Source: Gemmata obscuriglobus (GTDB lineage Bacteria; Planctomycetota; Planctomycetia; Gemmatales; Gemmataceae). From it: a DNA stretch of 32,000 nt. Below the pieces are notes generated by a model. The model saw only the letters and a program-made list of their open reading frames with translations, had not been told where the DNA came from and did not search any database. The translations under genes were made by a program, and so were the position numbers. Below are positions 1,112-27,963 of this stretch, piece after piece. The DNA is taken from assembly GCF_008065095.1 (NCBI RefSeq), contig NZ_CP042911.1:4230001-4262000 (forward strand), given 5' to 3'. Numbering within the stretch: position 1 is the stretch's first letter; every line of letters begins with the position of its first letter.

Positions 1112-2473
1112 ATGACCCCCGACTCACACTCTGCCGCGGCCCCCGCGGCGGGACAACGCGCGCGCGTGCTCACGTTGTCCACGGTCGCTTTCACGCTGCT
1201 GTTTGCGGTCTGGCTCATGCTCGGGATGCTGAGCATCAAGATTAAGCCCGAACTCGGGCTGACCGACGGGCAGCTCTACAACCTCACGATCGCCGCGATC
1301 CTGTCCGGGGCGCTGTTGCGGTTCCACTTCGGCGTCTGGACCGACCGCTACGGCGGGCGCCGGGTGATGACCGCGCTGATCCTCTTCGCCGTGGTCCCGA
1401 CGTTTCTGGTCAGCCGTGTGACGAGTTACACGGAACTGCTCATTTGCGCGGTTTTGTACGGCGTGGCCGGTAACTCGTTCTCGGTCGGCATCGCGTGGTG
1501 CGCGGCGTGGTTCCCGAAGGAGCGCCAGGGGCTGGCGCTGGGCGTGTTCGGGGCCGGCAACGTGGGCGCGTCGGTGACCAAGCTCGTCGGGCCGATTCTG
1601 ATCGCCGCGGTGCCGGCGGCGGGGTTCTTTGGCGGTGTGGTGCCGGGCGGGTGGCGGTTCATTCCGGTTGCCTATGCGGGTCTCTTGGTGCTGTTGGCGC
1701 TGGCGGTCTGGTTCCTGTCGCCGCGCGAGGACCGGCGCCCGGCGCGGGGGCGGCCCCTCTCCGAACTGATGGCACCGATGAAACACGCCCGCGTGTGGGA
1801 GTACAGCCTCCAGTACACCGTTGTGTTCGGCGCGTACGTCGCGCTCTCCGGCGTGCTGCCGCAGTTCTACTACGCGACCTACGGCAAACAACTGGCCGTG
1901 AGCTTCCACCTGAACGAACAGCTCGTGAGCGAGTTCGACACCATCAAGGGGCTCAAGGGCGACGCCTACACCGCGCACCTGAACGCGCACCCGGTTGTGA
2001 AGGACGACCTGAACACCCTGTCGAAGTGGATCGGGCTCCTGGCGGCGGTGTGCTTCGTGTTCCCCGCGAGCCTGTTGCGGCCGGTGGGCGGGTGGCTGTC
2101 CGACAAGTACGGTGCCGCGCGGGTCATGGCGGCGGTGTTCGTCGCCATGCTGGTGGCCGGGCTGGCGCTGGTCCTGCCGTTGGGGCTCGGCGTGTGGGGC
2201 TTCACGGGCGCGCTGTTCATGTTGGGGGCGGGGATGGGCGTGGGCAAAGCGAGCGTGTACAAGATGATCCCCGACCACTTCCCGCGCGAAGTCGGCGCGG
2301 TGGGCGGGCTCGTGGGGCTGCTCGGGGCGCTGGGCGGGGTGCTGCTGCCGCTGGCCTGGGCGGCAGTGCCGGGCAGCACGTTCGCCGCGTTGCTAACACT
2401 GACGATCATTAGCGCGATGTGGTTCGCGGCCGGGCTAGTGCTCGAACGTAAGCCCGCGGCAGTTCCTGCGTAG
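1112..2473 (+). CDS. narK: MFS transporter, nitrate/nitrite porter (NNP, NarK/NasA-like)
   Basis: 453-aa ORF with ATG start and many hydrophobic helices. MFS motif A (WTDRYGGRRV). NNP-type glycine/asparagine signature (FGAGNVGAS). Adjacent to the NirB-like gene. Confidence 0.8.
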   Translation: MTPDSHSAAAPAAGQRARVLTLSTVAFTLLFAVWLMLGMLSIKIKPELGLTDGQLYNLTIAAILSGALLRFHFGVWTDRYGGRRVMTALILFAVVPTFLVSRVTSYTELLICAVLYGVAGNSFSVGIAWCAAWFPKERQGLALGVFGAGNVGASVTKLVGPILIAAVPAAGFFGGVVPGGWRFIPVAYAGLLVLLALAVWFLSPREDRRPARGRPLSELMAPMKHARVWEYSLQYTVVFGAYVALSGVLPQFYYATYGKQLAVSFHLNEQLVSEFDTIKGLKGDAYTAHLNAHPVVKDDLNTLSKWIGLLAAVCFVFPASLLRPVGGWLSDKYGAARVMAAVFVAMLVAGLALVLPLGLGVWGFTGALFMLGAGMGVGKASVYKMIPDHFPREVGAVGGLVGLLGALGGVLLPLAWAAVPGSTFAALLTLTIISAMWFAAGLVLERKPAAVPA

Positions 2474-2527
2474 TTCGGCAAGAGTTTTTGACAGGATTTT
2501 AAAGACAGTAAGCGGTTCGGTGGTGTC

Positions 2528-3438
2528 CTACTTTTGTTGCACGGCGGGATGGGCCAACCATTCAGCGAGTGACCACACGTGATCGGTGAGCCCGGCGGCC
2601 ATCGCCGGGGTTCGTGCCCGACACCGGCCGCCCTCGCCTTTCACGCGCAGGGTGCGGACGGGCCAGCAGAAGTTGTCGCTGAAGTAACTGAACGCGGTGG
2701 CGGCCCGGTGCGTGCCCCGGTCCTTCGAGAACCCGTAGCTGTTCCGCACCTTGCGGCGGCACCGGTTCCGATCGGTCCCGTTGTGCCGCTCCACGAAGCA
2801 CGTATTCACAACCGTGCTCACCGCCGAATCCAGCCGCGCGGCGGCCACTGCGGCCGCGGTCCCGAGCACCACCCGGGTGCTCACCGACACCACCCGGTTG
2901 TTCTCACGCGCCTTGTGCACGGTCGCATACGCGACCGCCGCCGGGAGCACCACCCGAGCCTTCCGCGGGCGCCCCGGTCGCCCGGTCCGTGGTGGGGTCA
3001 CTAACTGCCCGTATGCCGCGCGGATGGCCGATTCGTACACCGGGTACTCGCCCGTGGTGATGAGCCGCAGGAGCCGGTCCGCCGATGCGCCGATGCGCCG
3101 ATGCGCCGATGCGCGTCCCGCACCAGCGCGTGTGTCGCCTCCTCGGTTCGCTGGCCCACCACCAGGCTCACCACCAGTCGGTGCTCCGGATCCAGGGCCA
3201 CGTGGTCCCAGCAGTCCCCACGGCGCCGCTCCTCCGGGGCACCGTTCTTCTCCTCGCGGGCCACGAAGCTCCACTCCTCATCCAGTTGGAGCTCGTTGGT
3301 CCGGGGGGGAAAGGGCCACCAACTCGTCGTGGAGTTGCTGGGCCTGCTCGCCGGCCTGACGGATGTACCGGGTGACCGTGTCCCGATGTACCCCGACCAA
3401 TCGGGCCGTCTTGCGGGTGCCGGATCCCTCCGCCACAT
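2528..3438 (-). pseudogene. IS1-family transposase orfB, disrupted by an 8-bp repeat expansion
   Basis: The reading frame is split between track ORFs 3001..3438 and 2528..3274. The break coincides with four tandem GCCGATGC units at 3081-3112. The intact copy B is 8 nt shorter at this point. Confidence 0.8.
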
Positions 3439-3652
3439 GGGCCAGCACCGCGGTCACCGTCTGGGCCGACAACCGGGTGCCGTACAAGGGCGTGCCCTTG
3501 CGCTCCGAGAACCGGGCCTTGCAGGTGGAGCACCTCAGCACCCGGGTGTTGCTCGGGCCGTATCGGGCCGGCACCGTTAGGTTCCCGTGCCCCCGCTTCC
3601 CGTGGTCCGGACAATCCGCATTCCGGCAACAGAACCGACTCAGATCGTCCAT
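3278..3652 (-). CDS. IS1-family transposase orfA (InsA-like, zinc finger plus HTH)
   Basis: MDDLSRFCCRNADCPDHG...RCSTCKARF gives a C-x4-C...C-x2-C zinc finger. TRKTARLVGVHRDTVTRYIRQ is an HTH. ATG at 3652, with an alternative GTG at 3667. Ends inside the overlap with the orfB frame. Confidence 0.75.
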   Translation of the reverse strand: MDDLSRFCCRNADCPDHGKRGHGNLTVPARYGPSNTRVLRCSTCKARFSERKGTPLYGTRLSAQTVTAVLAHVAEGSGTRKTARLVGVHRDTVTRYIRQAGEQAQQLHDELVALSPPDQRAPTG

Positions 3653-4265
3653 GACCGATCCCAACACGCGCGAGGGAAAAGCACGACCGAACAGTGTAAC
3701 TACTTACCACGCATCAGTAGCCGCATACAAGACGAACAGGACACCACCGGCTATCTTATGTAAGGCGTTATCGGTAATCACTTTGCACCTCTTTCCTGGG
3801 ATCATGTTGGGTTTCGATCGAGCCCGCTCGGGTCGCATGCGGGCGCGTAACGGGCGATTTTCGGGGTAGCAGTGAGCCAGCGAAACGCCAGTCCGTCGGT
3901 AGCGAATGTCTAGTCAGTGCCCCATCGGTGGGGCCAGCGCGGTACGGACCCATCGTTCACATTGCCTCACTGCCGTTGCCCATCACACGGGCGCACGCGG
4001 CCGGTTCGGCGCCGGCGGCACCCGAACGCAGTATCGGCTTGCCGACACCGAGACCCGCTATCCGGCTGATGTCAACGGAAGGTTGGGCGCAACGCCCGGA
4101 TCACAACAACGCCCGCCGAACGGGCGCGGTTCTCTGAATGGTGGGAATGTGACGGTCGGTGTGCTTGTCTGGATTTGCGGTTGTGGCTTGCCACGTGTGA
4201 TCGCTGTCTGCTGAACGGGTGGGCCGTTGCGGATCGGTTTGCACCCGTCGCGGCCGGGGGGCGCG

Positions 4266-4851: not shown

Positions 4852-6822
4852 TTAGCAATACTCCCCGAGTATCGCGGCCACGCTCGCGGCGTCCGGGTAC
4901 CGGGCGGCCGGGTCCTTCCGCAACAGCCTCAGGATCACCTCCTCGAACCAGTCCGGCACGGCGGCCCGCACCAGGCTGGGCCGCAGCGGCTCGCTGCCGC
5001 ACACGGCGTTGAACACCGCCGCCACCGTCTGCCCGGGGAAGGGCACCTTGCCGGTTACCATGTGATACATGACCCCGCCCAGCCCGAACAGGTCGGAGCG
5101 GGAGTCCGCCTCCTCCCCCTGGACCGTTTCGGGGGCCATGAAGAACGGGGTGCCGATCAGCGCGCCGTCGGCGGTCATTTTGGCGTCGTCGGCGATCCGG
5201 GCGAGGCCGAAGTCGGTGATCTTGGCGCGCCCGGTGTCGTCCTCCAGCAGGATGTTGGCGGGCTTGATGTCGCGGTGGATGACCCCCTTGGCGTGGGCGG
5301 CCGCCAGCCCCGACGCGATCTGCCGGGCCACGTTCACCGCCAGCAGGACGGGCAGCGGCCCGTGCTGCTCGACCCGCGCCTCCAGGCAGCTGCCCCGGAC
5401 GTACTCCATGGCGAGGTAGGTGACCCCGGCCGCCTCGCGCACCGCGTAGATGCCGACCGCGTTCTCGTGCTGGATCGAGGCCGCGACCCGGGCCTCGCGG
5501 GCGAACCGGGCGCGTGCGCTCGCGCTGGCGGTCAGCTCCGGGGCCAGCACCTTGATCGCCACGAACCGGTGCAGGCTCGGCTCGAACGCCTTGAACACCA
5601 CCCCCATCGCCCCGCGCCCGAGCAGGCTGCGCAGCTCGTACCCGCCGAGCCGGCACCCGCACTCGGGCAACTTCTTGGCGAACTCGGGCCGGAAATCGGG
5701 GAGCCCCTTCACGTCGCAGTGGGTGGGCGGGGGCGTCGAGTCGTCCGGGAGGGCCTGGGTCCGGGCCGTGGACCGGCTCGGCGGGGGCGCCGGCGTGCGG
5801 TGGGACGCGGACGGGCCGCTCATCCGGGTGCGGCTGGTCTCGACCGTCAGGTTCACCAGCTCCTGCGCGCCGGCCGCGAGCACGGTCGCGTAGTCCGGGC
5901 ACTGGCCGATGTCCTGGTTCAGCACCGAGGCGAACGCCTCGATCTTGGGGGCCACGCTCTGGAGGAACGCGACCAGGGCGGTGCGGGGCAGGTGGAACCG
6001 CTCCTTGGCGGTCATCATCACCCGCGCCAGCAGGTCCGGGTTCTGGGCCACCCGGTCGAGGTGGACCATGTAGTTGGAGAACTGGAGCAGCTCGGCCCGG
6101 TTCTGCTGCACCTTCGACGCGGCGGTCGCCAGCTCGGGCTGGTGGTGGTAGCGGATCGGCTCGACGATGTCGGCCGGGAGCTTCCACTGCTGGAGGATCT
6201 CGGCGGTCACGTCGGCGTGGTCGATGCCGAACGAGGCGACCTCGGCCCCGCACGGGTCCTCGACCAGCCCCTCCCCGTAGTACGCGACGTGCCGCAGCCA
6301 CGCGTCCGGGAACATCTGCCGCAGGAGCAGCTCGCCGAGGTCGCGGAGCAGGCCCGCGACCAGGTCGTCGTCGGGGCTCGACCGGCGGGTGAGGACGGCC
6401 AGCTCGCGGGCGATGATGGCCCCGCCGACCGACGACATCCAGTAGTCGCGGGTCATCTGGTCGGCACCGCGGCCCACCTTCACGGCGGGCAGCGACAGCC
6501 CGAGGGCGAGCGAGCGCACGGTGTTGAGGCCGAGCACGTGGACCGCGCGGGCGACCGACGCGATCGGCTGCTTGAGCCCGTAGATGCACGAGTTCACGGC
6601 CCGCAGGAGCTTGCCGCACAGGGCCGAATCGAGGGCCAGGAGGGCGACGATCTCGGACGGCTCGCAGTCCGATTTGGAGGCCGCGTTCACCACCTGGAGC
6701 GCGACCGCCGGCGCGGTGGGCAGCCGGGTCGGGTCGAGGACCGCGGCCAGTACCTCGTTCCGGCCGGCGCGGTGGCGCGGCGGTAGCGGGTTGAGTGGGG
6801 GCGTGGAAATAGATGCCGACAC
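4852..6822 (-). CDS. HDOD domain / Ser-Thr protein kinase fusion protein
   Basis: The N-terminal half matches the HDOD pattern (LDSALCGKLLRAVNS..YGLKQPIASVARAVHVLGLNTVRSLAL, later IDHADV). The C-terminal half is a canonical Hanks kinase: GRGAMGVVFKA, VAIKVL, HRDIKPANILL, DFG, APE. GTG start with AAGGA about 9 nt upstream. Confidence 0.9.
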   Translation of the reverse strand: MSASISTPPLNPLPPRHRAGRNEVLAAVLDPTRLPTAPAVALQVVNAASKSDCEPSEIVALLALDSALCGKLLRAVNSCIYGLKQPIASVARAVHVLGLNTVRSLALGLSLPAVKVGRGADQMTRDYWMSSVGGAIIARELAVLTRRSSPDDDLVAGLLRDLGELLLRQMFPDAWLRHVAYYGEGLVEDPCGAEVASFGIDHADVTAEILQQWKLPADIVEPIRYHHQPELATAASKVQQNRAELLQFSNYMVHLDRVAQNPDLLARVMMTAKERFHLPRTALVAFLQSVAPKIEAFASVLNQDIGQCPDYATVLAAGAQELVNLTVETSRTRMSGPSASHRTPAPPPSRSTARTQALPDDSTPPPTHCDVKGLPDFRPEFAKKLPECGCRLGGYELRSLLGRGAMGVVFKAFEPSLHRFVAIKVLAPELTASASARARFAREARVAASIQHENAVGIYAVREAAGVTYLAMEYVRGSCLEARVEQHGPLPVLLAVNVARQIASGLAAAHAKGVIHRDIKPANILLEDDTGRAKITDFGLARIADDAKMTADGALIGTPFFMAPETVQGEEADSRSDLFGLGGVMYHMVTGKVPFPGQTVAAVFNAVCGSEPLRPSLVRAAVPDWFEEVILRLLRKDPAARYPDAASVAAILGEYC

Positions 6823-7193
6823 CGGACCATCCTTGTGAATTTGCGCCCGTGACTACGCTGCGGAAGGAAGGATAGCACCGAAGCGTGCGTCACGAATGCG
6901 CCCCCGTCAAGCGTGCGACGGGCCTCGACGGCCCCGGGCCCGTCGCGCCGGCCGTGAGTTCGCGGGCCACCGAACGGATTCGCGCGGGCCAAGAACGGCT
7001 CACCAGGCGCTGGCGCGGCGCGGGCCTTGTTGAGCCGTGGCGGGCGCGACGGCATAATATCCCCGGCGCCGTGCGTGGTGGGGCGAGTGTGTTGCGCGAG
7101 TGCGGCGGGTTGCCATCGAGCCCGCTCCCAACGCCGCGGGCCGTGTTCGGAGCCGCGGTACACCGGCTGATCGCCACCGCAGCTAGTAAGCGA

Positions 7194-7226
7194 TTCGTGG
7201 AGCGGCACAACGGGACCGATCGGAAC
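7194..7226 (+). mobile_element. Relic of an IS1-family transposase gene, opposite orientation to the two full copies
   Basis: 33-nt exact match (ttcgtggagcggcacaacgggaccgatcggaac) to the reverse complement of 12625-12657 and 2765-2797, encoding FVERHNGTDRN. Only weak similarity upstream to about 7140, and none downstream. Confidence 0.55.
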
Positions 7227-7229
7227 GAA

Positions 7230-7778
7230 ATGCCCTCTAACTCCCTGTTGCGCTGGCAGACGGACCGCGTTCCGCGGTTGAACGCGCTCGACGCGCAGGT
7301 GGCGTCCGGCCCGCCGTCCGCTCTCGCGGACGAAAACCTGCGCGCCCTCGTGGCGATGCTGTGCGCGCACTTTCAGGGATTTTGTCGAGACTTGTATAGC
7401 GAGTCCGTCGAGTCCGTCGTGCGCACCTTTCCGCCCGGCATGGGGTTAGTGGCGCGAACGCAGTTCATGGCACAAATCGGCCTCGGCACGGGCAACCCGA
7501 CGCTCCAGACGCTCGTCCGCGACTTCGACCGTTTTGGCGTGGGCGTGCGGGCCGCGCTGGACGCCGACCCTGCGAACGCGGTGCGCCTGAATCACCTCGC
7601 GCTGCTGAACCAGTGGCGCAACTTCGTGGTGCATCACGGGGTCACGGCGCCTCCCGGCCCGGCGCTTGCGCCGGCACTCCCTCAAGTGTGGCAGGTCTCG
7701 TGCGGCGGACTGGCGGCGGAACTGGACCGCATCATGTATGATTACCTCCAGGCACTGCTCGGCACCCCGCCCTGGTGA
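7230..7778 (+). CDS. Putative HEPN-superfamily protein (R-x4-H motif; MAE_28990/RiboL-PSP-like by motif recollection)
   Basis: 182 aa counted from the ATG at 7230. The longer track ORF from 6885 runs through the IS relic and is probably an artefact. Motif LNQW-R-NFVV-H-HG fits R-N-x3-H. The helix LCAHFQGFCRDLY and the block GTGNPTLQTLVRDFDRFGV resemble conserved blocks of Abi-type HEPN families. Codon usage is coding-like, with somewhat more A/T-ending codons than neighbouring genes. Confidence 0.6.
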   Translation: MPSNSLLRWQTDRVPRLNALDAQVASGPPSALADENLRALVAMLCAHFQGFCRDLYSESVESVVRTFPPGMGLVARTQFMAQIGLGTGNPTLQTLVRDFDRFGVGVRAALDADPANAVRLNHLALLNQWRNFVVHHGVTAPPGPALAPALPQVWQVSCGGLAAELDRIMYDYLQALLGTPPW

Positions 7779-7795
7779 CCGCCGGAGGGTGAGCC

Positions 7796-8053
7796 ATGTC
7801 GGCTGAAACCATCGACCAGACGCGCCCGCCCCGGCTCGGGGATCGTGTCCAGTTACGTACATTCACCGGCCTGCGGGGCCGGATCATCGAGTTCCGCGGC
7901 CCGATCGGTCACAAAGGCCGCGAACTGTTCGGCATCGAACTGATCTACCCCGACCACACGGAGTACACCGAGGCGGCGCGAGACGATCTCGTGTACCTCG
8001 ACGACGGGAACGACCCCGAGCACCCGAACCCGCCCGCCCCCGCCACGGAATGA
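7796..8053 (+). CDS. Hypothetical small protein (85 aa), no recognisable family
   Basis: ATG preceded by GGAGGG 7 nt upstream. Strong G/C third-position bias. Lies 17 nt after the HEPN-like stop and 7 nt before the ABC ATPase start. Beta-rich-looking N-terminal part (GDRVQLRTFTGLRGRIIEFRG) and an acidic, proline-rich tail. Confidence 0.6.
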   Translation: MSAETIDQTRPPRLGDRVQLRTFTGLRGRIIEFRGPIGHKGRELFGIELIYPDHTEYTEAARDDLVYLDDGNDPEHPNPPAPATE

Positions 8054-8060
8054 CCACACG

Positions 8061-8735
<675 letters not shown>

Positions 8736-8754
8736 CACACTCACCGGCGCACTC

Positions 8755-11700
8755 ATGCTCAGCTTCTCCGGGTTGGTCCTTCGGAACCTCGTGTACCACG
8801 CGCGCGGGAACCTCGCCGTGCTGCTCGGGGTCGCGGTCGGGTCGGCCGTGTTCACCGGGGCGCTGCTCGTCGGCGACTCGCTCCGCGGCTCCCTCCGCGA
8901 CCGCGTCGAGCGGCAGTTGGGCGGCGTCGATTCGGTCGCATTCTTCCCGCGCCCCGTGCGCGCGGGCATCGCGGACGGAATGCCCGGGACCGTCAAACCG
9001 GTCCTCCTCGTGCCGGGGGCCGTCCAGGCGAGCGGCGACCCGGCCACCGCCCCGTACCTCGGGAAGGTCACGGTGCTCGGGATCGATCCGCGTTCGGCCC
9101 CGGTCGGCGTGTCCGAGGTGGATTGGGCCAGCGACATACGCCGAAACCGATCGACCAACACGTTCCCGCCCGTGATCCTTTCGCACCGCGTTGCGGAGAA
9201 GCTGAACGCGAAAACCGGTGACACCGTCACGTTGAGCGCGGAACGGTTCTCGGACCTGCCGCGCTCCTCCTCGCTCGCGAAGCGCAGTACCGACGATGTC
9301 ACGACGGCGGAGCAATTTACCGTCGCGGCGGTGCTGCCCCCGGAGGCACCGGAAAACGACTTCAACCTGACCCCGAACCCGGCCGCGCCGCTGAACGTGT
9401 TCGTTCCGGTGCGCACGCTCGCGCGGATGGTCACCGGGGACGCGGAGCCGGTCGCAACGGTCCTGCTGGCGAGCGGCGCGCCTCACGACGCCCTCAACGC
9501 CGCGCTCAAGGAACGTCTCCGGCCTGAAGACTACGGGCTGAAGTTCCGCGAGGTCGCCCGCCGGCTCGGGCGCGGCGGCTACCTGAGTGTCGAATCGGCG
9601 GAACTCATTCTTCCGCCAAAGGTATCAGACGCGGTACGGGCGGCGGCTCAGGCCGTCGGCGCCCGCGCCGAGCCGACGGTGGTGTACGTGGCGGACACGC
9701 TCGCCGTGGGCGACAAGCAGATCCCGTACCCGATCGTCGCGGGTCTGAACACCACCGCACCTTCGCCCCTCAGTCCGCACGAACTGGCCCCCATCCCGAC
9801 ACCGTCACTCGCCGACGACGAGGTGGAACTGCTCACGTGGCCCGGGTCCGAACTGAACAGGCTGCCGCGGGGCACGAAGGTGAAGCTCGTCTACTTCGAT
9901 CCCGAAGTCGAGGGCGAGGGGCTGAAGCGTGAGGCGGAACTGACGCTCAGCGGGTACATCCCCCTCTCCGGACCGGCGCGCGACAAAGACCTGACGCCCG
10001 AAATTAAGGGCGTGACCGACGACCGCGCGAACCTGTTCGACTGGGACCGCCCGCCGGTGCTGCCCGGCGCCGAGATCAAGCGGCGCGTGCCCGAGAAGCC
10101 GACCCCGCACCCGCGCGGCACGTTCTTCAACCAGAACAAGGCCGTGCCGATGGCCTACCTGAACCTCGCCACCGCCCGGAAGCTGTTCCGCAGCCGGTAC
10201 GGCACCGACACGTCGGTTCGAGTGGCGCCGGCGAACAACGAGCCGCTCGACAAGTTCAGCGAACGGCTTCAATCCGAGCTGCCCAAGCACCTCGACCCCG
10301 ATTCCGCGGGCCTGGTGTTCGATCCCGTGCGCGCCCGCCTTCTCACCGCGAGTAAGGGGGGCACGGACTTCGGCGGGCTGTTCCTCGGGTTCAGCCTGTT
10401 CCTCATCGCGGCGGCGCTGATGCTGGTGGGGCTACTGTTCCGGCTCTCCATCGACCGCCGGGCGAAGGAAGTGGGGCTCCTGCTCGCGACCGGGTTCGCG
10501 GTCAAGCACGTTCGGCGGTTGCTCCTGGCGGAGGGGCTACTCGTAGCGGTGCTGGGCGCCGCGCTCGGGCTTATCGCGGGGGTGGCGTACAACCGATTGC
10601 TGCTCGTGGTGCTGCTCGACTTGTGGCCCGATCAGGGCGTCAAGGCGTACTTCCAACCGCACGCCACGCCCCTCAGCTTCGCCCTCGGGTTCGGAATCAC
10701 GGTGCTGATGGCCCTCGCCGCGCAATGGTGGAGCGTTCGCGGGCTTGTTAGGATCGCGCCGCCGGCTCTCCTCCGCGGTGAAACGGCACTGCCCGCCGGC
10801 TCGACGGCCGGTATCGGGCTCGTCACGAAAATCGTCACAATCGGTGGATTGGTCGTCGGCATCGCGCTGATCGCGGCCGGCGGTACGGTCAGCAACCCCG
10901 ACTTCCGCGCGATGACGTTTTTCGGCGGCGGCGGGTTGCTCCTCACCGCGGCGCTGGCGGCTGTACGGTGGTGGATGCGCCGCACCCGACACGCGGTCGT
11001 GAACGGCCGGGGGCTGTCCGCGCTCGCTAAGCTGGGAACCCGCAACGCGGCCCGGAATCCGGCCCGCAGCCTGTTAACTGCGGCGCTGCTGGCATCGGCG
11101 GCGTTCCTGCTGGTCGCAGTCGAGAGCTTCCGCCGCACGCCCGAAAGCGACTTCCTCGACAAGAGCGGCGGGAGCGGCGGGTTCAACCTCCTGGCCGAAG
11201 CGGACGTGCCGCTGTTCCAGCCGTTCGACAGCGGGCTCGGCCGCGCCGATCTGGAGAAGCAACTCCAGAAGGCCTACGCGCCGTCGGGTACTGACCCCGA
11301 CGCACCACCGGCCACCGACGCGTATCGCACAGCGAAAGCGGACCTGAGCGCCGGTCTGGAAGAGGTGTTCCCATTGCGGCTGCGCGGCGGCGACGACGCG
11401 AGCTGCATGAACCTGTTCCAGGCGGCCCGGCCCCGTGTGCTGGGTGTGCCGGAAGCGCTGATCGCTCGCGGCGGGTTCAAGTTCTACATGACCGAAGCGG
11501 CGTCTGCCGAGGAGAAAGCGAACCCGTGGCTACTGCTCGCGAAGCCGGCACCCAACGACGCGGTCCCGGTGTTCTGCGAGAACAACACCGCGCAGTGGAT
11601 GCTCAAGAAAGCGATAGGGGACGAGTTCACGATGCCCGGCGACGACGGCGCCGAGGTGCGCTTTCGGATCGTGGGGACGCTCGTGGACAGCCCGTTCCAG

Positions 11701-12273
11701 AGCGAAGTGATTACGAGCGACGCGGCGTTCGTGAAAGCGTTCCCCAAGCAAACCGGCTACCGTGCGTTCCTGATCCGCACCCCGGCGGACAAGCAAACCG
11801 CGGTCGCGCGGGCGCTGGAAATCGGGTTCCGGGCGAACGGGCTCGCCGCAACGCCGACACGGGACAAGGTGGCGTCGTTCCAGGCGGTCATCGGCGCGTA
11901 CCTCTCGACGTTCCAATTGCTCGGCGGCTTCGGGCTACTACTCGGGGTACTGGGGCTCGCGGTGGTGGTACTGCGCGGGGTGTGGGAGCGTTTGGGTGAA
12001 CTCGCCTTATTGCGGGCCGTCGGTTACCGCACGCGGGCTCTCCAGTTCCTTGTAATCGTTGAAAACGGGCTGCTGTTGCTCGTCGGCCTGGGGGCGGGCG
12101 TGCTGACCGCGCTGGCCTCGGTCGCCCCGCACGTGCTGAGCGGGGCCGCGATCCCGTGGGTGCGCCTCGGACTGATGCTCGGGGCCGTACTGGTGGCAGG
12201 ACTGACGGTTGCGACGGTCGCAACGGCCGGGGTGCTGCGGGTGCCGGTTATCCCCGCGCTGCGGCGAGAGTGA
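8755..12273 (+). CDS. ABC transporter permease with two FtsX/MacB-type modules (1172 aa)
   Basis: N-terminal TM helix, then a large extracytoplasmic region and a cluster of TM helices (about aa 530-690). The same arrangement then repeats: TM helix, second extracytoplasmic region, and a final cluster of TM helices. Starts 19 nt after the ATPase gene. Confidence 0.85.
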   Translation: MLSFSGLVLRNLVYHARGNLAVLLGVAVGSAVFTGALLVGDSLRGSLRDRVERQLGGVDSVAFFPRPVRAGIADGMPGTVKPVLLVPGAVQASGDPATAPYLGKVTVLGIDPRSAPVGVSEVDWASDIRRNRSTNTFPPVILSHRVAEKLNAKTGDTVTLSAERFSDLPRSSSLAKRSTDDVTTAEQFTVAAVLPPEAPENDFNLTPNPAAPLNVFVPVRTLARMVTGDAEPVATVLLASGAPHDALNAALKERLRPEDYGLKFREVARRLGRGGYLSVESAELILPPKVSDAVRAAAQAVGARAEPTVVYVADTLAVGDKQIPYPIVAGLNTTAPSPLSPHELAPIPTPSLADDEVELLTWPGSELNRLPRGTKVKLVYFDPEVEGEGLKREAELTLSGYIPLSGPARDKDLTPEIKGVTDDRANLFDWDRPPVLPGAEIKRRVPEKPTPHPRGTFFNQNKAVPMAYLNLATARKLFRSRYGTDTSVRVAPANNEPLDKFSERLQSELPKHLDPDSAGLVFDPVRARLLTASKGGTDFGGLFLGFSLFLIAAALMLVGLLFRLSIDRRAKEVGLLLATGFAVKHVRRLLLAEGLLVAVLGAALGLIAGVAYNRLLLVVLLDLWPDQGVKAYFQPHATPLSFALGFGITVLMALAAQWWSVRGLVRIAPPALLRGETALPAGSTAGIGLVTKIVTIGGLVVGIALIAAGGTVSNPDFRAMTFFGGGGLLLTAALAAVRWWMRRTRHAVVNGRGLSALAKLGTRNAARNPARSLLTAALLASAAFLLVAVESFRRTPESDFLDKSGGSGGFNLLAEADVPLFQPFDSGLGRADLEKQLQKAYAPSGTDPDAPPATDAYRTAKADLSAGLEEVFPLRLRGGDDASCMNLFQAARPRVLGVPEALIARGGFKFYMTEAASAEEKANPWLLLAKPAPNDAVPVFCENNTAQWMLKKAIGDEFTMPGDDGAEVRFRIVGTLVDSPFQSEVITSDAAFVKAFPKQTGYRAFLIRTPADKQTAVARALEIGFRANGLAATPTRDKVASFQAVIGAYLSTFQLLGGFGLLLGVLGLAVVVLRGVWERLGELALLRAVGYRTRALQFLVIVENGLLLLVGLGAGVLTALASVAPHVLSGAAIPWVRLGLMLGAVLVAGLTVATVATAGVLRVPVIPALRRE

Positions 12274-12282
12274 TGGCGAGGG

Positions 12283-12328
12283 CTTCACTCCTCCCACAAC
12301 TCAGAGCTGTGGCGGAGTGAAGAGTTTT
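12283..12328 (+). terminator. Candidate intrinsic terminator of the ABC cluster
   Basis: Hairpin CTTCACTCC (12283-12291) / GGAGTGAAG (12314-12322) with additional inner pairing, followed by GAGTTTTGA. Begins 10 nt after the permease stop. Confidence 0.5.
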
Positions 12329-12330
12329 GA

Positions 12331-12357
12331 CAGGATCAACAGGATACACAGGATCAA
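12331..12357. repeat. Three tandem 9-mers CAGGATNNN (caggatcaa caggataca caggatcaa)
   Basis: Read directly from the sequence. A single-unit version (gacaggat) sits in the equivalent position at 2490-2497, beside IS1 copy A. Confidence 0.7.
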
Positions 12358-12387
12358 AGAAAGACTAAGCGAACCGCTGGCGGTGTC

Positions 12388-13290
12388 CTACTTTTGTTGC
12401 ACGACCGGGAACGCCAGCCACTCTTGCAACGACCACACGTGATCGGTGAGCCCGGCGGCCATCGCCGTGGTTCGTGCCCGATACCGGCCGCCCTCGCCTT
12501 TCACGCGCAGGGTGCGGACGGGCCAGCAGAAGTTGTCGCTGAAGTAACTGAACGCGGTGGCGGCCCGGTGCGTGCCCCGGTCCTTCGAGAACCCGTAGCT
12601 GTTCCGCACCTTGCGGCGGCACCGGTTCCGATCGGTCCCGTTGTGCCGCTCCACGAAGCACGTATTCACAACCGTGCTCACCGCCGAATCCAGCCGCGCG
12701 GCGGCCACTGCGGCCGCGGTCCCGAGCACCACCCGGGTGCTCACCGACACCACCCGGTTGTTCTCACGCGCCTTGTGCACGGTCGCATACGCGACCGCCG
12801 CCGGGAGCACCACCCGAGCCTTCCGCGGGCGCCCCGGTCGCCCGGTCCGTGGTGGGGTCACCAACTGCCCGTATGCCGCGCGGATGGCCGATTCGTACAC
12901 CGGGTACTCGCCCGTGGTGATGAGCCGCAGGAGCCGGTCCGCCGATGCGCCGGTCCGCCGATGCGCGTCCCGCACCAGCGCGTGTGTCGCCTCCTCGGTT
13001 CGCTGGCCCACCACCAGGCTCACCACCAGTCGGTGCTCCGGATCCAGGGCCACGTGGTCCCAGCAGTCCCCACGGCGCCGCTCCTCCGGGGCACCGTTCT
13101 TCTCCTCGCGGGCCACGAAGCTCCACTCCTCATCCAGTTGGAGCTCGTTGGTCCGGGGGGGAAAGGGCCACCAACTCGTCGTGGAGTTGCTGGGCCTGCT
13201 CGCCGGCCTGACGGATGTACCGGGTGACCGTGTCCCGATGTACCCCGACCAATCGGGCCGTCTTGCGGGTGCCGGATCCCTCCGCCACAT
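12388..13290 (-). CDS. IS1-family transposase orfB (DDE domain), uninterrupted in this copy
   Basis: 300-aa ORF containing LQLDEEWSFV (first catalytic Asp context) and the FVERHNGTDRN...GFSKD block. The first roughly 45 codons overlap orfA out of frame, so the native product is probably an orfA-orfB fusion rather than this ORF on its own. Confidence 0.75.
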   Translation of the reverse strand: MWRRDPAPARRPDWSGYIGTRSPGTSVRPASRPSNSTTSWWPFPPRTNELQLDEEWSFVAREEKNGAPEERRRGDCWDHVALDPEHRLVVSLVVGQRTEEATHALVRDAHRRTGASADRLLRLITTGEYPVYESAIRAAYGQLVTPPRTGRPGRPRKARVVLPAAVAYATVHKARENNRVVSVSTRVVLGTAAAVAAARLDSAVSTVVNTCFVERHNGTDRNRCRRKVRNSYGFSKDRGTHRAATAFSYFSDNFCWPVRTLRVKGEGGRYRARTTAMAAGLTDHVWSLQEWLAFPVVQQK

Positions 13291-13505
13291 GGGCCAGCAC
13301 CGCGGTCACCGTCTGGGCCGACAACCGGGTGCCGTACAAGGGCGTGCCCTTGCGCTCCGAGAACCGGGCCTTGCACGTGGAGCACCGCAGCACCCGGGTG
13401 CGGTTCGGTCCGTACCGGGCCGGCACCGTCAGGTTACCGTGCCCCCCGCTTCCCGTGGTCCGGGCAATCCGCATTCCGGCAACAGAACCGACTCAGATCG
13501 TCCAT
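13130..13505 (-). pseudogene. IS1-family transposase orfA with a 1-nt homopolymer insertion in the zinc-finger region
   Basis: Copy B has six C at 13442-13447; copy A has five at 3590-3594. This splits MDDLSRFCCRNADCPDHGKRG (track ORF 13434..13640) from HGNLTVPARYG... (track ORF 13130..13474). Confidence 0.75.
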
Positions 13506-13991
13506 GACCGATCCCAACACGCGCGAGGGAAAAGCACGACCGAACGGTGTAAACTCCTTACCACCTATTAGCAGCTGCATACAAGACGAACAGGACACCA
13601 CCGCTCTGTTGGCCGGCACCGTGATCGTTTCCGTGAACACTCCGCCGCCGCACTCGACCCCTCACGTCGTAGGTGCCGTGGGCCGTCACTGGGCTGGTCA
13701 GACAAACTCCAGTCGTTTCAAGCTGGCAATAGCCGTGACGGGATCAATCGCCGGCTCGGAACACGCCCCGGTGACACCTGTCAGCAGACGGGTGACGCAT
13801 AAACAACGAAATTGAAACGATTGGACGCAGGTTCGCTGTCAGTCGGGTTGTAGTCCGCGGCGGCCCCATGGTGGCGCTTCTCCGCCAGCGCTGCGACGCG
13901 AGTGGGGCACCATCCCTTTATCTGCGGCGGCTCTTCTCTCTGGCGCGTTCTCCCGTACCCCAAAGGGGACGCTTCGCGCCGAGGGTCCTGC

Positions 13992-27865: not shown

Positions 27866-27963
27866 TTCACCGCAGAGGGCGCGAGAGGGCGCAGAGAAAG
27901 ACCAGAGAGTGAGGTTCAAGCTCTCTGTCTTTCTCTGCGCCCTCTCGCGCCCTCTGCGGTGAA
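27866..27963. repeat. 98-bp near-perfect palindrome (REP-like hairpin, possible terminator)
   Basis: The left arm 27866-27909 (ttcaccgcagagggcgcgagagggcgcagagaaagaccagagag) pairs with the right arm 27921-27963, with a single 1-nt bulge. The loop is tgaggttcaag. Lies between the purH stop and the M42 peptidase start. Confidence 0.8.

Follow-up and report, generated by a model that had tools for sequence, protein, structure and literature searches.

A HEPN-domain protein and a small predicted β-barrel protein form a conserved two-gene cassette in Planctomycetota: a candidate toxin–antidote pair

What do two small adjoining genes of Gemmata obscuriglobus, each annotated by NCBI as encoding a hypothetical protein, do as a pair? 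The genes, GobsT_35990 and GobsT_36000, lie in a stretch of 32,000 nucleotides (nt) of contig NZ_CP042911.1 (assembly GCF_008065095.1, positions 4,230,001 to 4,262,000 of the forward strand), which is called the window here; positions given below are window positions unless another locus is named. An initial annotation, made from the DNA letters by themselves, had suggested that the first gene encodes a HEPN-type RNase and that the two might be a toxin/immunity or abortive-infection (Abi) pair. In this study, we show that a HEPN gene followed by a gene of one small-protein family makes up a self-contained two-gene cassette that is widespread in Planctomycetota, and that gene loss within this cassette is one-sided. 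We propose, with slightly better than even confidence, that the pair is a toxin–antidote cassette akin to type II toxin–antitoxin systems, in which the HEPN protein would be an RNase toxin and the small barrel protein its antidote.

The HEPN protein and the small-protein family

The two genes and the short elements that belong to them are:

7230..7778, + strand: HEPN-domain gene GobsT_35990 (QEG28811.1), 182 amino acids (aa); ATG at 7230, TGA at 7776-7778
7617..7634, + strand: codons of Rx4H, the catalytic motif of HEPN proteins, R130-N131-F-V-V-H135, within LNQW-R-N-FVV-H-HG of GobsT_35990
7784..7789, + strand: GGAGGG, the Shine-Dalgarno sequence of the small gene as read from the sequence, 6 nt ahead of its ATG
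7796..8053, + strand: small partner gene GobsT_36000 (QEG28812.1), 85 aa; ATG at 7796, TGA at 8051-8053

A 17-nt spacer separates the stop codon of GobsT_35990 from the ATG of GobsT_36000, and GobsT_35990 contains the motifs LCAHFQGFCRDLY and GTGNPTLQTLVRDFDRFGV besides LNQW-R-N-FVV-H-HG. In all of these points (coordinates of the open reading frames (ORFs), the three motifs, spacer and GGAGGG) the initial annotation was accurate.

GobsT_35990 is a HEPN protein of the RiboL-PSP/MAE_28990-like (Abi-type) group and a peripheral member of PF18735. Its single Pfam match is to that model, HEPN_RiboL-PSP, with an E-value of 1.8e-4 and 21.9 bits against a cut-off of 28.4, and residues 29-60 alone are aligned; the membership follows from its homologues, because relatives 47-50% identical to the window protein match the model, which is hit by 31/31 aligned homologues at E <= 0.01 (best 1.8e-11). 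A database search with the protein returned 251 homologues, nearly all of them 182-189 aa long, and 64 genome loci, almost all from Planctomycetota, were retrieved via the HEPN protein alone. W129, R130, N131, H135 and the stretch AHFQGFCRDL are invariant in an alignment of 31 sequences (A1), and the W[RK]Nx3H motif, including its Arg or Lys, Asn and His positions, is kept in 119 of 120 homologues, which likewise retain the R and the H that the initial annotation had singled out. The AlphaFold model (pLDDT 91.9, pTM 0.89) is all-helical with seven helices, and HEPN proteins are its top Foldseek matches in both libraries: in the PDB, YutE/DUF86 (1ylm, probability 0.92), with the HepT structures 7ae6 and 7bxo among the weak matches, and in BFVD the phage protein A0A8S5PB65, an MAE-28990/MAE-18760-like HEPN protein whose match covers the whole length of the model (probability 1.0, TM 0.65/0.58, 216 columns) at a Foldseek E-value of 0.13. 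The gene is under purifying selection, with a dN/dS of 0.18 against relatives. No meaningful match for the HEPN protein was found in PADLOC, PHROGs or NCBIfam, and neither the HEPN family nor the small-protein family had a meaningful match when PDB sequences were searched by profile.

Profile, motif and fold thus bear out the HEPN identity claimed at the outset. The likeness to Abi-type and RiboL-PSP-like families that it had pointed out was also apt, as Ribo L-PSP-HEPN has been placed distantly near AbiD/AbiF (PMC3710099); of the two profiles then named, PF18735 was recovered, below threshold for the window protein itself, and PF18737 gave no sequence-profile match. GobsT_35990 is a predicted RNase toxin. 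UniRef already names a 211-aa alternative-start form of the G. obscuriglobus protein and the Gemmata algarum orthologue 'RiboL-PSP-HEPN domain-containing', so that the HEPN assignment itself is not new; the novelty lies in the obligate partner family and the asymmetry of loss.

The 85-aa ORF had been considered an orphan, and a single-sequence database search with its product does return only 12 close relatives, on contigs that agree in length with those carrying the nearest HEPN homologues. When the protein was compared by tblastn with the 64 HEPN loci, weak matches were found that were consistently placed just 3' of the HEPN gene, the homologues in this position reaching down to about 30% identity, and a profile (A3) built from these matches recovers 1455 database proteins. 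The family comprises at least 736 clusters in an exhaustive search of 50%-identity representatives, most members being 70-120 aa long and some being tandem duplications; an orphan it is not. Against G. algarum the small gene shows 7 synonymous and 0 nonsynonymous differences, and against a 72%-identical relative its dN/dS is 0.19. The family consensus is GDRVxI...RGRIVElRGPLGPGGaqiYRV...kP.p.YIEv.EDQL, in which G15, V18, R34, G35, G41 and E59 are invariant and E-x-R-G-P-(L/I)-G forms a conserved hairpin loop.

The model of GobsT_36000 (pLDDT 75.8) is a five-stranded β-barrel with a confident core. Its best fold matches are SH3-like barrels (chromo, Tudor, the eIF5A N-domain, EF-P domain I, the RfaH KOW domain and ribosomal proteins), none of these matches being statistically significant, and from the model the partner is predicted to be an SH3-like β-barrel. 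Together with the lack of any match to a nucleotidyltransferase (NTase) profile, this agrees with the earlier remark that the partner is not an MNT nucleotidyltransferase. The family is covered by no Pfam, NCBIfam, PADLOC or PHROG model, and profiles of helix-turn-helix (HTH), ribbon-helix-helix (RHH) and AbrB domains found none in it, with weak hints of SH3-like barrels only. Two automatic UniRef names were examined and set aside: 'DUF4926' (PF16277), given to GobsT_36000, is matched by 0/45 family members at E <= 1 and by the window protein not even at E <= 10, while the name that a paralogue bears, '50S ribosomal protein L24', is supported by no profile search that was run. Tandem-barrel partners, with two barrels in one chain, also occur.

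Typical small partners are strongly basic, with a pI of 9.4-11.5 (about 10) and a median domain charge of +5. Those of the Gemmata clade, in contrast, are acidic (pI 4.9-6.2, versus about 10 in the rest of the family), and they end in a Pro/Asp-rich tail, DDGNDP..P-rich, in alignments A3 and A4. Their HEPN partners shift charge in the same direction and are near neutral.

Pairing and loss across loci

The two genes are strictly adjacent. In 57 of the 64 genome loci, the small-gene profile detects a copy immediately 3' of the HEPN gene, the remaining 7 being contig ends or shortened HEPN remnants, and a small homologue lies directly 3' of every assessable intact HEPN homologue (43/43). At least 72 distinct intact pairs were retrieved, and in 72 of these the small-gene profile starts a median of 17 nt (interquartile range 15-20) after the HEPN stop codon. 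When the flanking ORFs and downstream genes of the 64 loci were clustered, no conserved third gene appeared. An ABC transporter neighbor is conserved within the Gemmata clade only, and the neighbors of the pair vary among ribosomal-protein operons, kinases, leucine-rich-repeat (LRR) and HEAT-repeat proteins, sigma factors and occasional defense-like genes. As in type II-like modules, these are two small, co-oriented and closely spaced genes inherited together in variable contexts, and the pairing proposed for the window thus holds across the family: the HEPN gene and the small gene are a self-contained two-gene cassette, widespread in Planctomycetota.

Two pairs per genome are found in several metagenome-assembled genomes (MAGs). 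G. obscuriglobus itself has a second pair (locus L065, 121-3798), consisting of a 187-aa HEPN protein and the 70-aa small barrel protein GobsT_31390, which directly follows a gene for a 901-aa Mrr_cat-nSTAND1 protein, a defense-like context. The order of the HEPN gene and the small gene is reversed in one locus (L050). In L017 (6594-8915), L020 (6588-8885) and protein P0307, the barrel is fused to the N-terminus of a P-loop (GKS) protein of about 770 aa, and the fusion genes of L017 and L020 lie directly downstream of a HEPN homologue; the P-loop fusion protein belongs to no Pfam, NCBIfam or PADLOC family, and the barrel in it may serve as a docking module for larger regulators. Two further proteins, P0348 and P0396, were considered as HEPN-small fusions, which would have spoken for an interaction, and rejected on reading their sequences, not by profile search, since one has an unrelated dioxygenase-like N-terminus and the other looks like a doubtful gene call. 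In one MAG (L069, 4736-7965), the HEPN pair stands directly after an SMC_N ATPase matching PADLOC mad3 (MADS, E 1.3e-31) and a 511-aa protein of no known family.

Loss was analyzed in two samples, each retrieved via one partner without any condition on the other. The HEPN sample consisted of the genome loci and the small-gene sample of metagenome loci, deduplicated and with at least 620 nt upstream. The state of the other gene was as follows:

Intact HEPN genes, 43 assessable: small gene intact in 41, damaged in 2, remnant in 0, absent in 0
Intact small genes, 45 assessable: HEPN gene intact in 26, damaged in 3 (nonsense or frameshift), remnant in 8, absent in 8

An intact HEPN gene is therefore missing beside 19/45 intact small genes, whereas 0/43 intact HEPN genes are without a small gene (Fisher's exact p = 3e-5). 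The HEPN gene offers a 2.6-fold larger mutational target; once this is corrected for, two or fewer damaged small genes among 43 would be found by chance with p = 0.023. The two damaged small genes beside an intact HEPN gene have a divergent N-terminus (L021) and a frameshift (L061). On the other side, L071 carries an internal deletion of HEPN residues 31-140 with the adjoining small gene intact, and the HEPN remnants beside an intact small gene are mostly the last 40-50 codons or so. In L097, L128, L132, L135, L136 and L152, only the last 15-50 codons or so are kept; this retained 3' stretch may carry promoter or translation signals of the small gene. The 8 small genes without a HEPN gene have no alternative conserved neighbor. 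A 159-aa gene upstream of one stand-alone small gene was considered as a HEPN variant and encodes a HEAT-repeat protein instead. If the HEPN protein does harm on its own, loss should be one-sided in just this way, and this is the asymmetry of a type II-like module, in which orphan antidotes are tolerated and orphan toxins are not.

Readings of the pair

If the pair is a toxin–antidote cassette, R130 and H135 of the Rx4H motif would come together in a HEPN dimer as its composite active site. The small gene is probably co-transcribed with the HEPN gene and has its own Shine-Dalgarno sequence, and the SH3-like barrel that it encodes would bind the HEPN protein directly and keep it inactive. We infer, then, RNase activity and toxicity for the HEPN protein, physical binding between the two proteins, and inhibition at or near the active site. 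Several paralogous pairs per genome, the variation of the neighborhood from locus to locus and the tandem-barrel partners are all toxin–antitoxin-like behavior, and tandem barrels fit a dimeric HEPN target. Purifying selection on both genes agrees with this reading as well. The conserved pairing and the loss asymmetry agree with the toxin/immunity-type pair with a non-MNT partner that had been suggested for this locus, the mechanism being as conjectured here.

It is conceivable, though we put it forward only tentatively, that the barrel is an uncatalogued class of HEPN antidote, distinct in mechanism from MNT, which acts by AMPylation, and from RnlB and Dmd. One option is that the invariant E-x-R-G-P-L-G-P-G-G hairpin, which resembles in shape the modified loop of EF-P and eIF5A domain I, would enter the HEPN dimer at its composite Rx4H site. 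The other is that the barrel would also tether the nuclease to RNA or to the ribosome, and would be inhibitor and targeting subunit at once. If such a class exists, the P-loop NTPase fusions would show the same barrel at work as a latch of general use, holding HEPN effectors in the conflict systems of Planctomycetes.

Several observations weigh against a toxin–antidote cassette. The small partners and the HEPN partners are both basic (median charges +5 and +4, respectively) and their charges correlate positively (rho 0.33); such shared basic charge suits an RNA-binding subunit no less than it suits a classical acidic antitoxin. Profile searches found no DNA-binding domain of the type II autoregulating kind in the small-protein family, PADLOC and PHROGs gave no match for either protein, and no HEPN relative was found on the viral contigs scanned. 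The pair of the Gemmata clade is vertically stable in a four-gene block, which is unusual for a selfish cassette. The HEPN protein of the window remains under the Pfam gathering cut-off (21.9 versus 28.4 bits), and no structural match of its model in the PDB or BFVD reaches E <= 0.001. Moreover, the two loss samples come from different collections, and some of the frameshifts are in MAGs with names suggesting long-read assembly and are possible sequencing errors.

The alternative that survives best, unlikely as we hold it to be, is a two-subunit RNA-processing enzyme, in which a small basic barrel of the SH3/KOW/Tudor type would bind RNA or the ribosome and, as the specificity subunit, direct the HEPN nuclease to its substrate, and both subunits would be needed for one function of the cell. 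The high basicity of most small partners (pI 9.4-11.5) and the basic charge of most HEPN partners would suit such an enzyme, as would the top structural classes of the barrel model, which are nucleic-acid- or ribosome-associated (the eIF5A N-domain, EF-P domain I, RfaH KOW, ribosomal proteins, Tudor/chromo), although none of these fold matches is statistically significant. Stable synteny in the Gemmata clade, purifying selection and the lack of defense-database matches are also consistent with it. However, paralogous copies, patchy distribution, frequent remnants and variable neighborhoods are atypical of a housekeeping function, and an obligate complex predicts roughly symmetric decay, against the 19/45 versus 0/43 that were seen. 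It is mainly because loss is one-sided that we prefer a toxin and its antidote over an enzyme of two subunits.

An abortive-infection or anti-phage system, with the barrel as a sensor or latch that would free the HEPN RNase on meeting a phage component and that would be coupled to a large NTPase in some lineages, appears improbable to us, and it overlaps the toxin–antidote reading instead of excluding it. The related HEPN proteins of the AbiD/AbiF group are Abi effectors (PMC3710099), and a defense role is in line with the barrel fused to the P-loop protein of about 770 aa beside the HEPN gene in L017 and L020, with the Mrr_cat-nSTAND1 gene that the second G. obscuriglobus pair follows, and with the one locus beside a MADS mad3 homologue (E 1.3e-31). 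However, the genes around most pairs are ordinary ones of metabolism or regulation, PADLOC and PHROGs have no match for either protein or for the fusion, and the viral-contig scan found nothing.

That the 85-aa ORF is a spurious or unrelated frame of a GC-rich genome whose adjacency is meaningless, as might be thought given that high-GC DNA yields many long spurious ORFs and that no curated family matches it, is already refuted by homologues in the same position in 57/64 loci down to about 30% identity, by a family of at least 736 clusters, by the confident β-barrel core of the model, and by selection (7 synonymous and 0 nonsynonymous differences from G. algarum, dN/dS 0.19 against the 72%-identical relative).

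The Gemmata locus and the closest known systems

The cassette has a stable place in the Gemmata lineage, as the first genes of a cluster that encodes an ABC transporter. Two further features lie upstream of it in the window:

7194..7226, + strand: 33-nt IS1-like transposase-gene fragment (encodes FVERHNGTDRN), a rearrangement junction and no functional part of the module
7030..7058, + strand: candidate promoter-like site, TTGAGC-17-CATAAT, some 170 nt ahead of the HEPN start codon, a consensus match only

The 33-nt fragment is identical to 2765-2797 (- strand) and 12625-12657 (- strand), inside two insertion sequence (IS) copies, and no such match occurred in 100 shuffles, which confirms the exact match to an IS element just before the HEPN ATG that had been noted initially. 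The similarity stops abruptly on both sides and ends 3 nt before that ATG. The IS copies (2519-3749 and 12379-13603) are about 1.23 kb each, 96% identical and in direct orientation, the fragment being opposite to both, and indels split the transposase frame of copy 1. Both ends of the copies carry the 11-bp terminal inverted repeat GGTGGTGTCCT, and the 8-bp sequence GAACCGCT abuts the same end of both copies in opposite orientations (junctions 2497-2518 and 12371-12378), the target being single in the aligned spacer of G. algarum, as GAACAGCT (L001 11100-11330). IS1 makes 8-9-bp target duplications. For the label IS1 used in the initial annotation, the transposase profile matches are sub-threshold (PF03400, E 4e-4, 21.1 bits versus 24.1; NF033558, E 2.5e-5, 24.3 bits versus 100), and the terminal inverted repeat and the 8-bp duplication come in addition.

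Collinear counterparts of the stretch 7230-12390 exist in G. algarum (95.5% identity) and in more distant relatives (about 74%); the homology to G. algarum sets in precisely at the HEPN ATG, and the block HEPN-small-ABC ATPase-MacB/FtsX permease is syntenic in relatives that have no IS there. Because this four-gene block is collinear in IS-free relatives, it is ancestral in the Gemmata lineage and the pair is not IS cargo. The same collinearity led us to reject a composite transposon carrying the pair between the two IS copies, and it removes the ground on which an IS-bounded segment had been taken as the sign of a conflict island. The gene after the permease in G. algarum corresponds to window 1234-2497, inverted and adjoining IS copy 1, and the outer flanks that meet the same end of the two IS copies form one continuous stretch in G. 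algarum. As reconstructed by alignment, the IS inserted downstream of the four-gene block and drove at least one rearrangement or inversion in G. obscuriglobus; the 33-nt fragment marks one of the breakpoints, immediately ahead of the HEPN start codon, and the upstream flank has been replaced. The reconstruction yields only the flanks contiguous in G. algarum and the duplicated 8-bp target, and the IS context is uninformative on the function of the pair.

The promoter-like site was observed once against 0.1 expected in shuffles, with a consensus that may differ from that of Planctomycete promoters, and it may be the current driver of the HEPN and small genes. No terminator-like site was found between the pair and the ABC genes, and an Rfam scan of the window gave no match. 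The G+C content at third codon positions (GC3) is 0.83 in both the HEPN gene and the small gene, versus 0.92 in the ABC gene, 0.86 in the permease gene and 0.97 in the kinase gene; the remark that the codons of the pair are richer in A/T endings than those of its neighbors was correct, and the difference is weak. It is possible that the Gemmata-clade pair, with its acidic partner and its stable four-gene block with an ABC transporter, has been repurposed.

Upstream of the pair, a 656-aa protein encoded at 4852-6822 on the - strand has an N-terminal HDOD domain (E 4e-47) and a C-terminal Ser/Thr protein kinase domain (E 3e-49), and this gene adjoins the HEPN pair in G. obscuriglobus only. Elsewhere in the window, a perfect 37-nt inverted repeat (TTCACCGCAGAGGGCGCGAGAGGGCGCAGAGAAAGAC; 27866-27902 and 27927-27963, with a 24-nt spacer) lies near the ends of two long ORFs and has no Rfam match.

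HEPN RNases are effectors of many toxin–antitoxin, abortive-infection and CRISPR-associated systems, and how each of them is silenced is the central mechanistic question. Here the partner, a predicted SH3-like barrel, is in no curated library, and the cassette is widespread in Planctomycetota, a phylum with very few characterized toxin–antitoxin or defense systems. Small and readily testable, the cassette could bring to light a mode of inhibition or targeting that is new for HEPN nucleases. Its description would also replace the two automatic UniRef names, 'DUF4926', which the profile test did not reproduce, and '50S ribosomal protein L24', which has no profile support.

Among known families, Ribo L-PSP-HEPN proteins share a conserved motif, are fused to endoRNase L-PSP or encoded in a ParB operon, and are distantly related to AbiD/AbiF (PMC3710099, Anantharaman et al. 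2013). The Planctomycete proteins belong to the same profile subfamily (PF18735, 31/31 homologues) and have the conserved Rx4-6H motif, but they differ in being stand-alone proteins of about 185 aa that are always followed by a small β-barrel gene. Neither of the published contexts was encountered, as the window protein is a single-domain protein of 182 aa, its neighbors are the HDOD-kinase and the ABC transporter, and the 64 loci have no conserved third gene. The MAE_28990/MAE_18760-like HEPN proteins (PF18737) provide the best structural match of the model, A0A8S5PB65, but this likeness comes with no PF18737 sequence-profile match and a Foldseek E-value of only 0.13. DUF4926 (PF16277) resembles the small partner in being a small protein of about 70 aa of unknown function, yet its Pfam model is matched by none of the 45 small-family members at E <= 1.

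In layout, the pair recalls RnlA-RnlB and LsoA-LsoB, in which the gene of a HEPN RNase toxin comes first and is followed by that of a small antitoxin, other than a nucleotidyltransferase, that probably acts by binding the toxin directly; phage T4 Dmd is a substitute antitoxin. No sequence relationship to these systems turned up, though no search aimed at them was made, and RnlA is a much larger multidomain protein than the HEPN protein of the window. RnlB and Dmd are not known to be SH3-like barrels. HepT-MntA (HEPN-MNT, type VII toxin–antitoxin) shares with the present pair a small Rx4H HEPN protein, an RNase toxin in HepT, and a two-gene cassette. It differs in that the partner here matches no NTase profile and has a β-barrel fold in the model, which excludes neutralization by AMPylation, and in the order of the genes, with the putative toxin encoded first.

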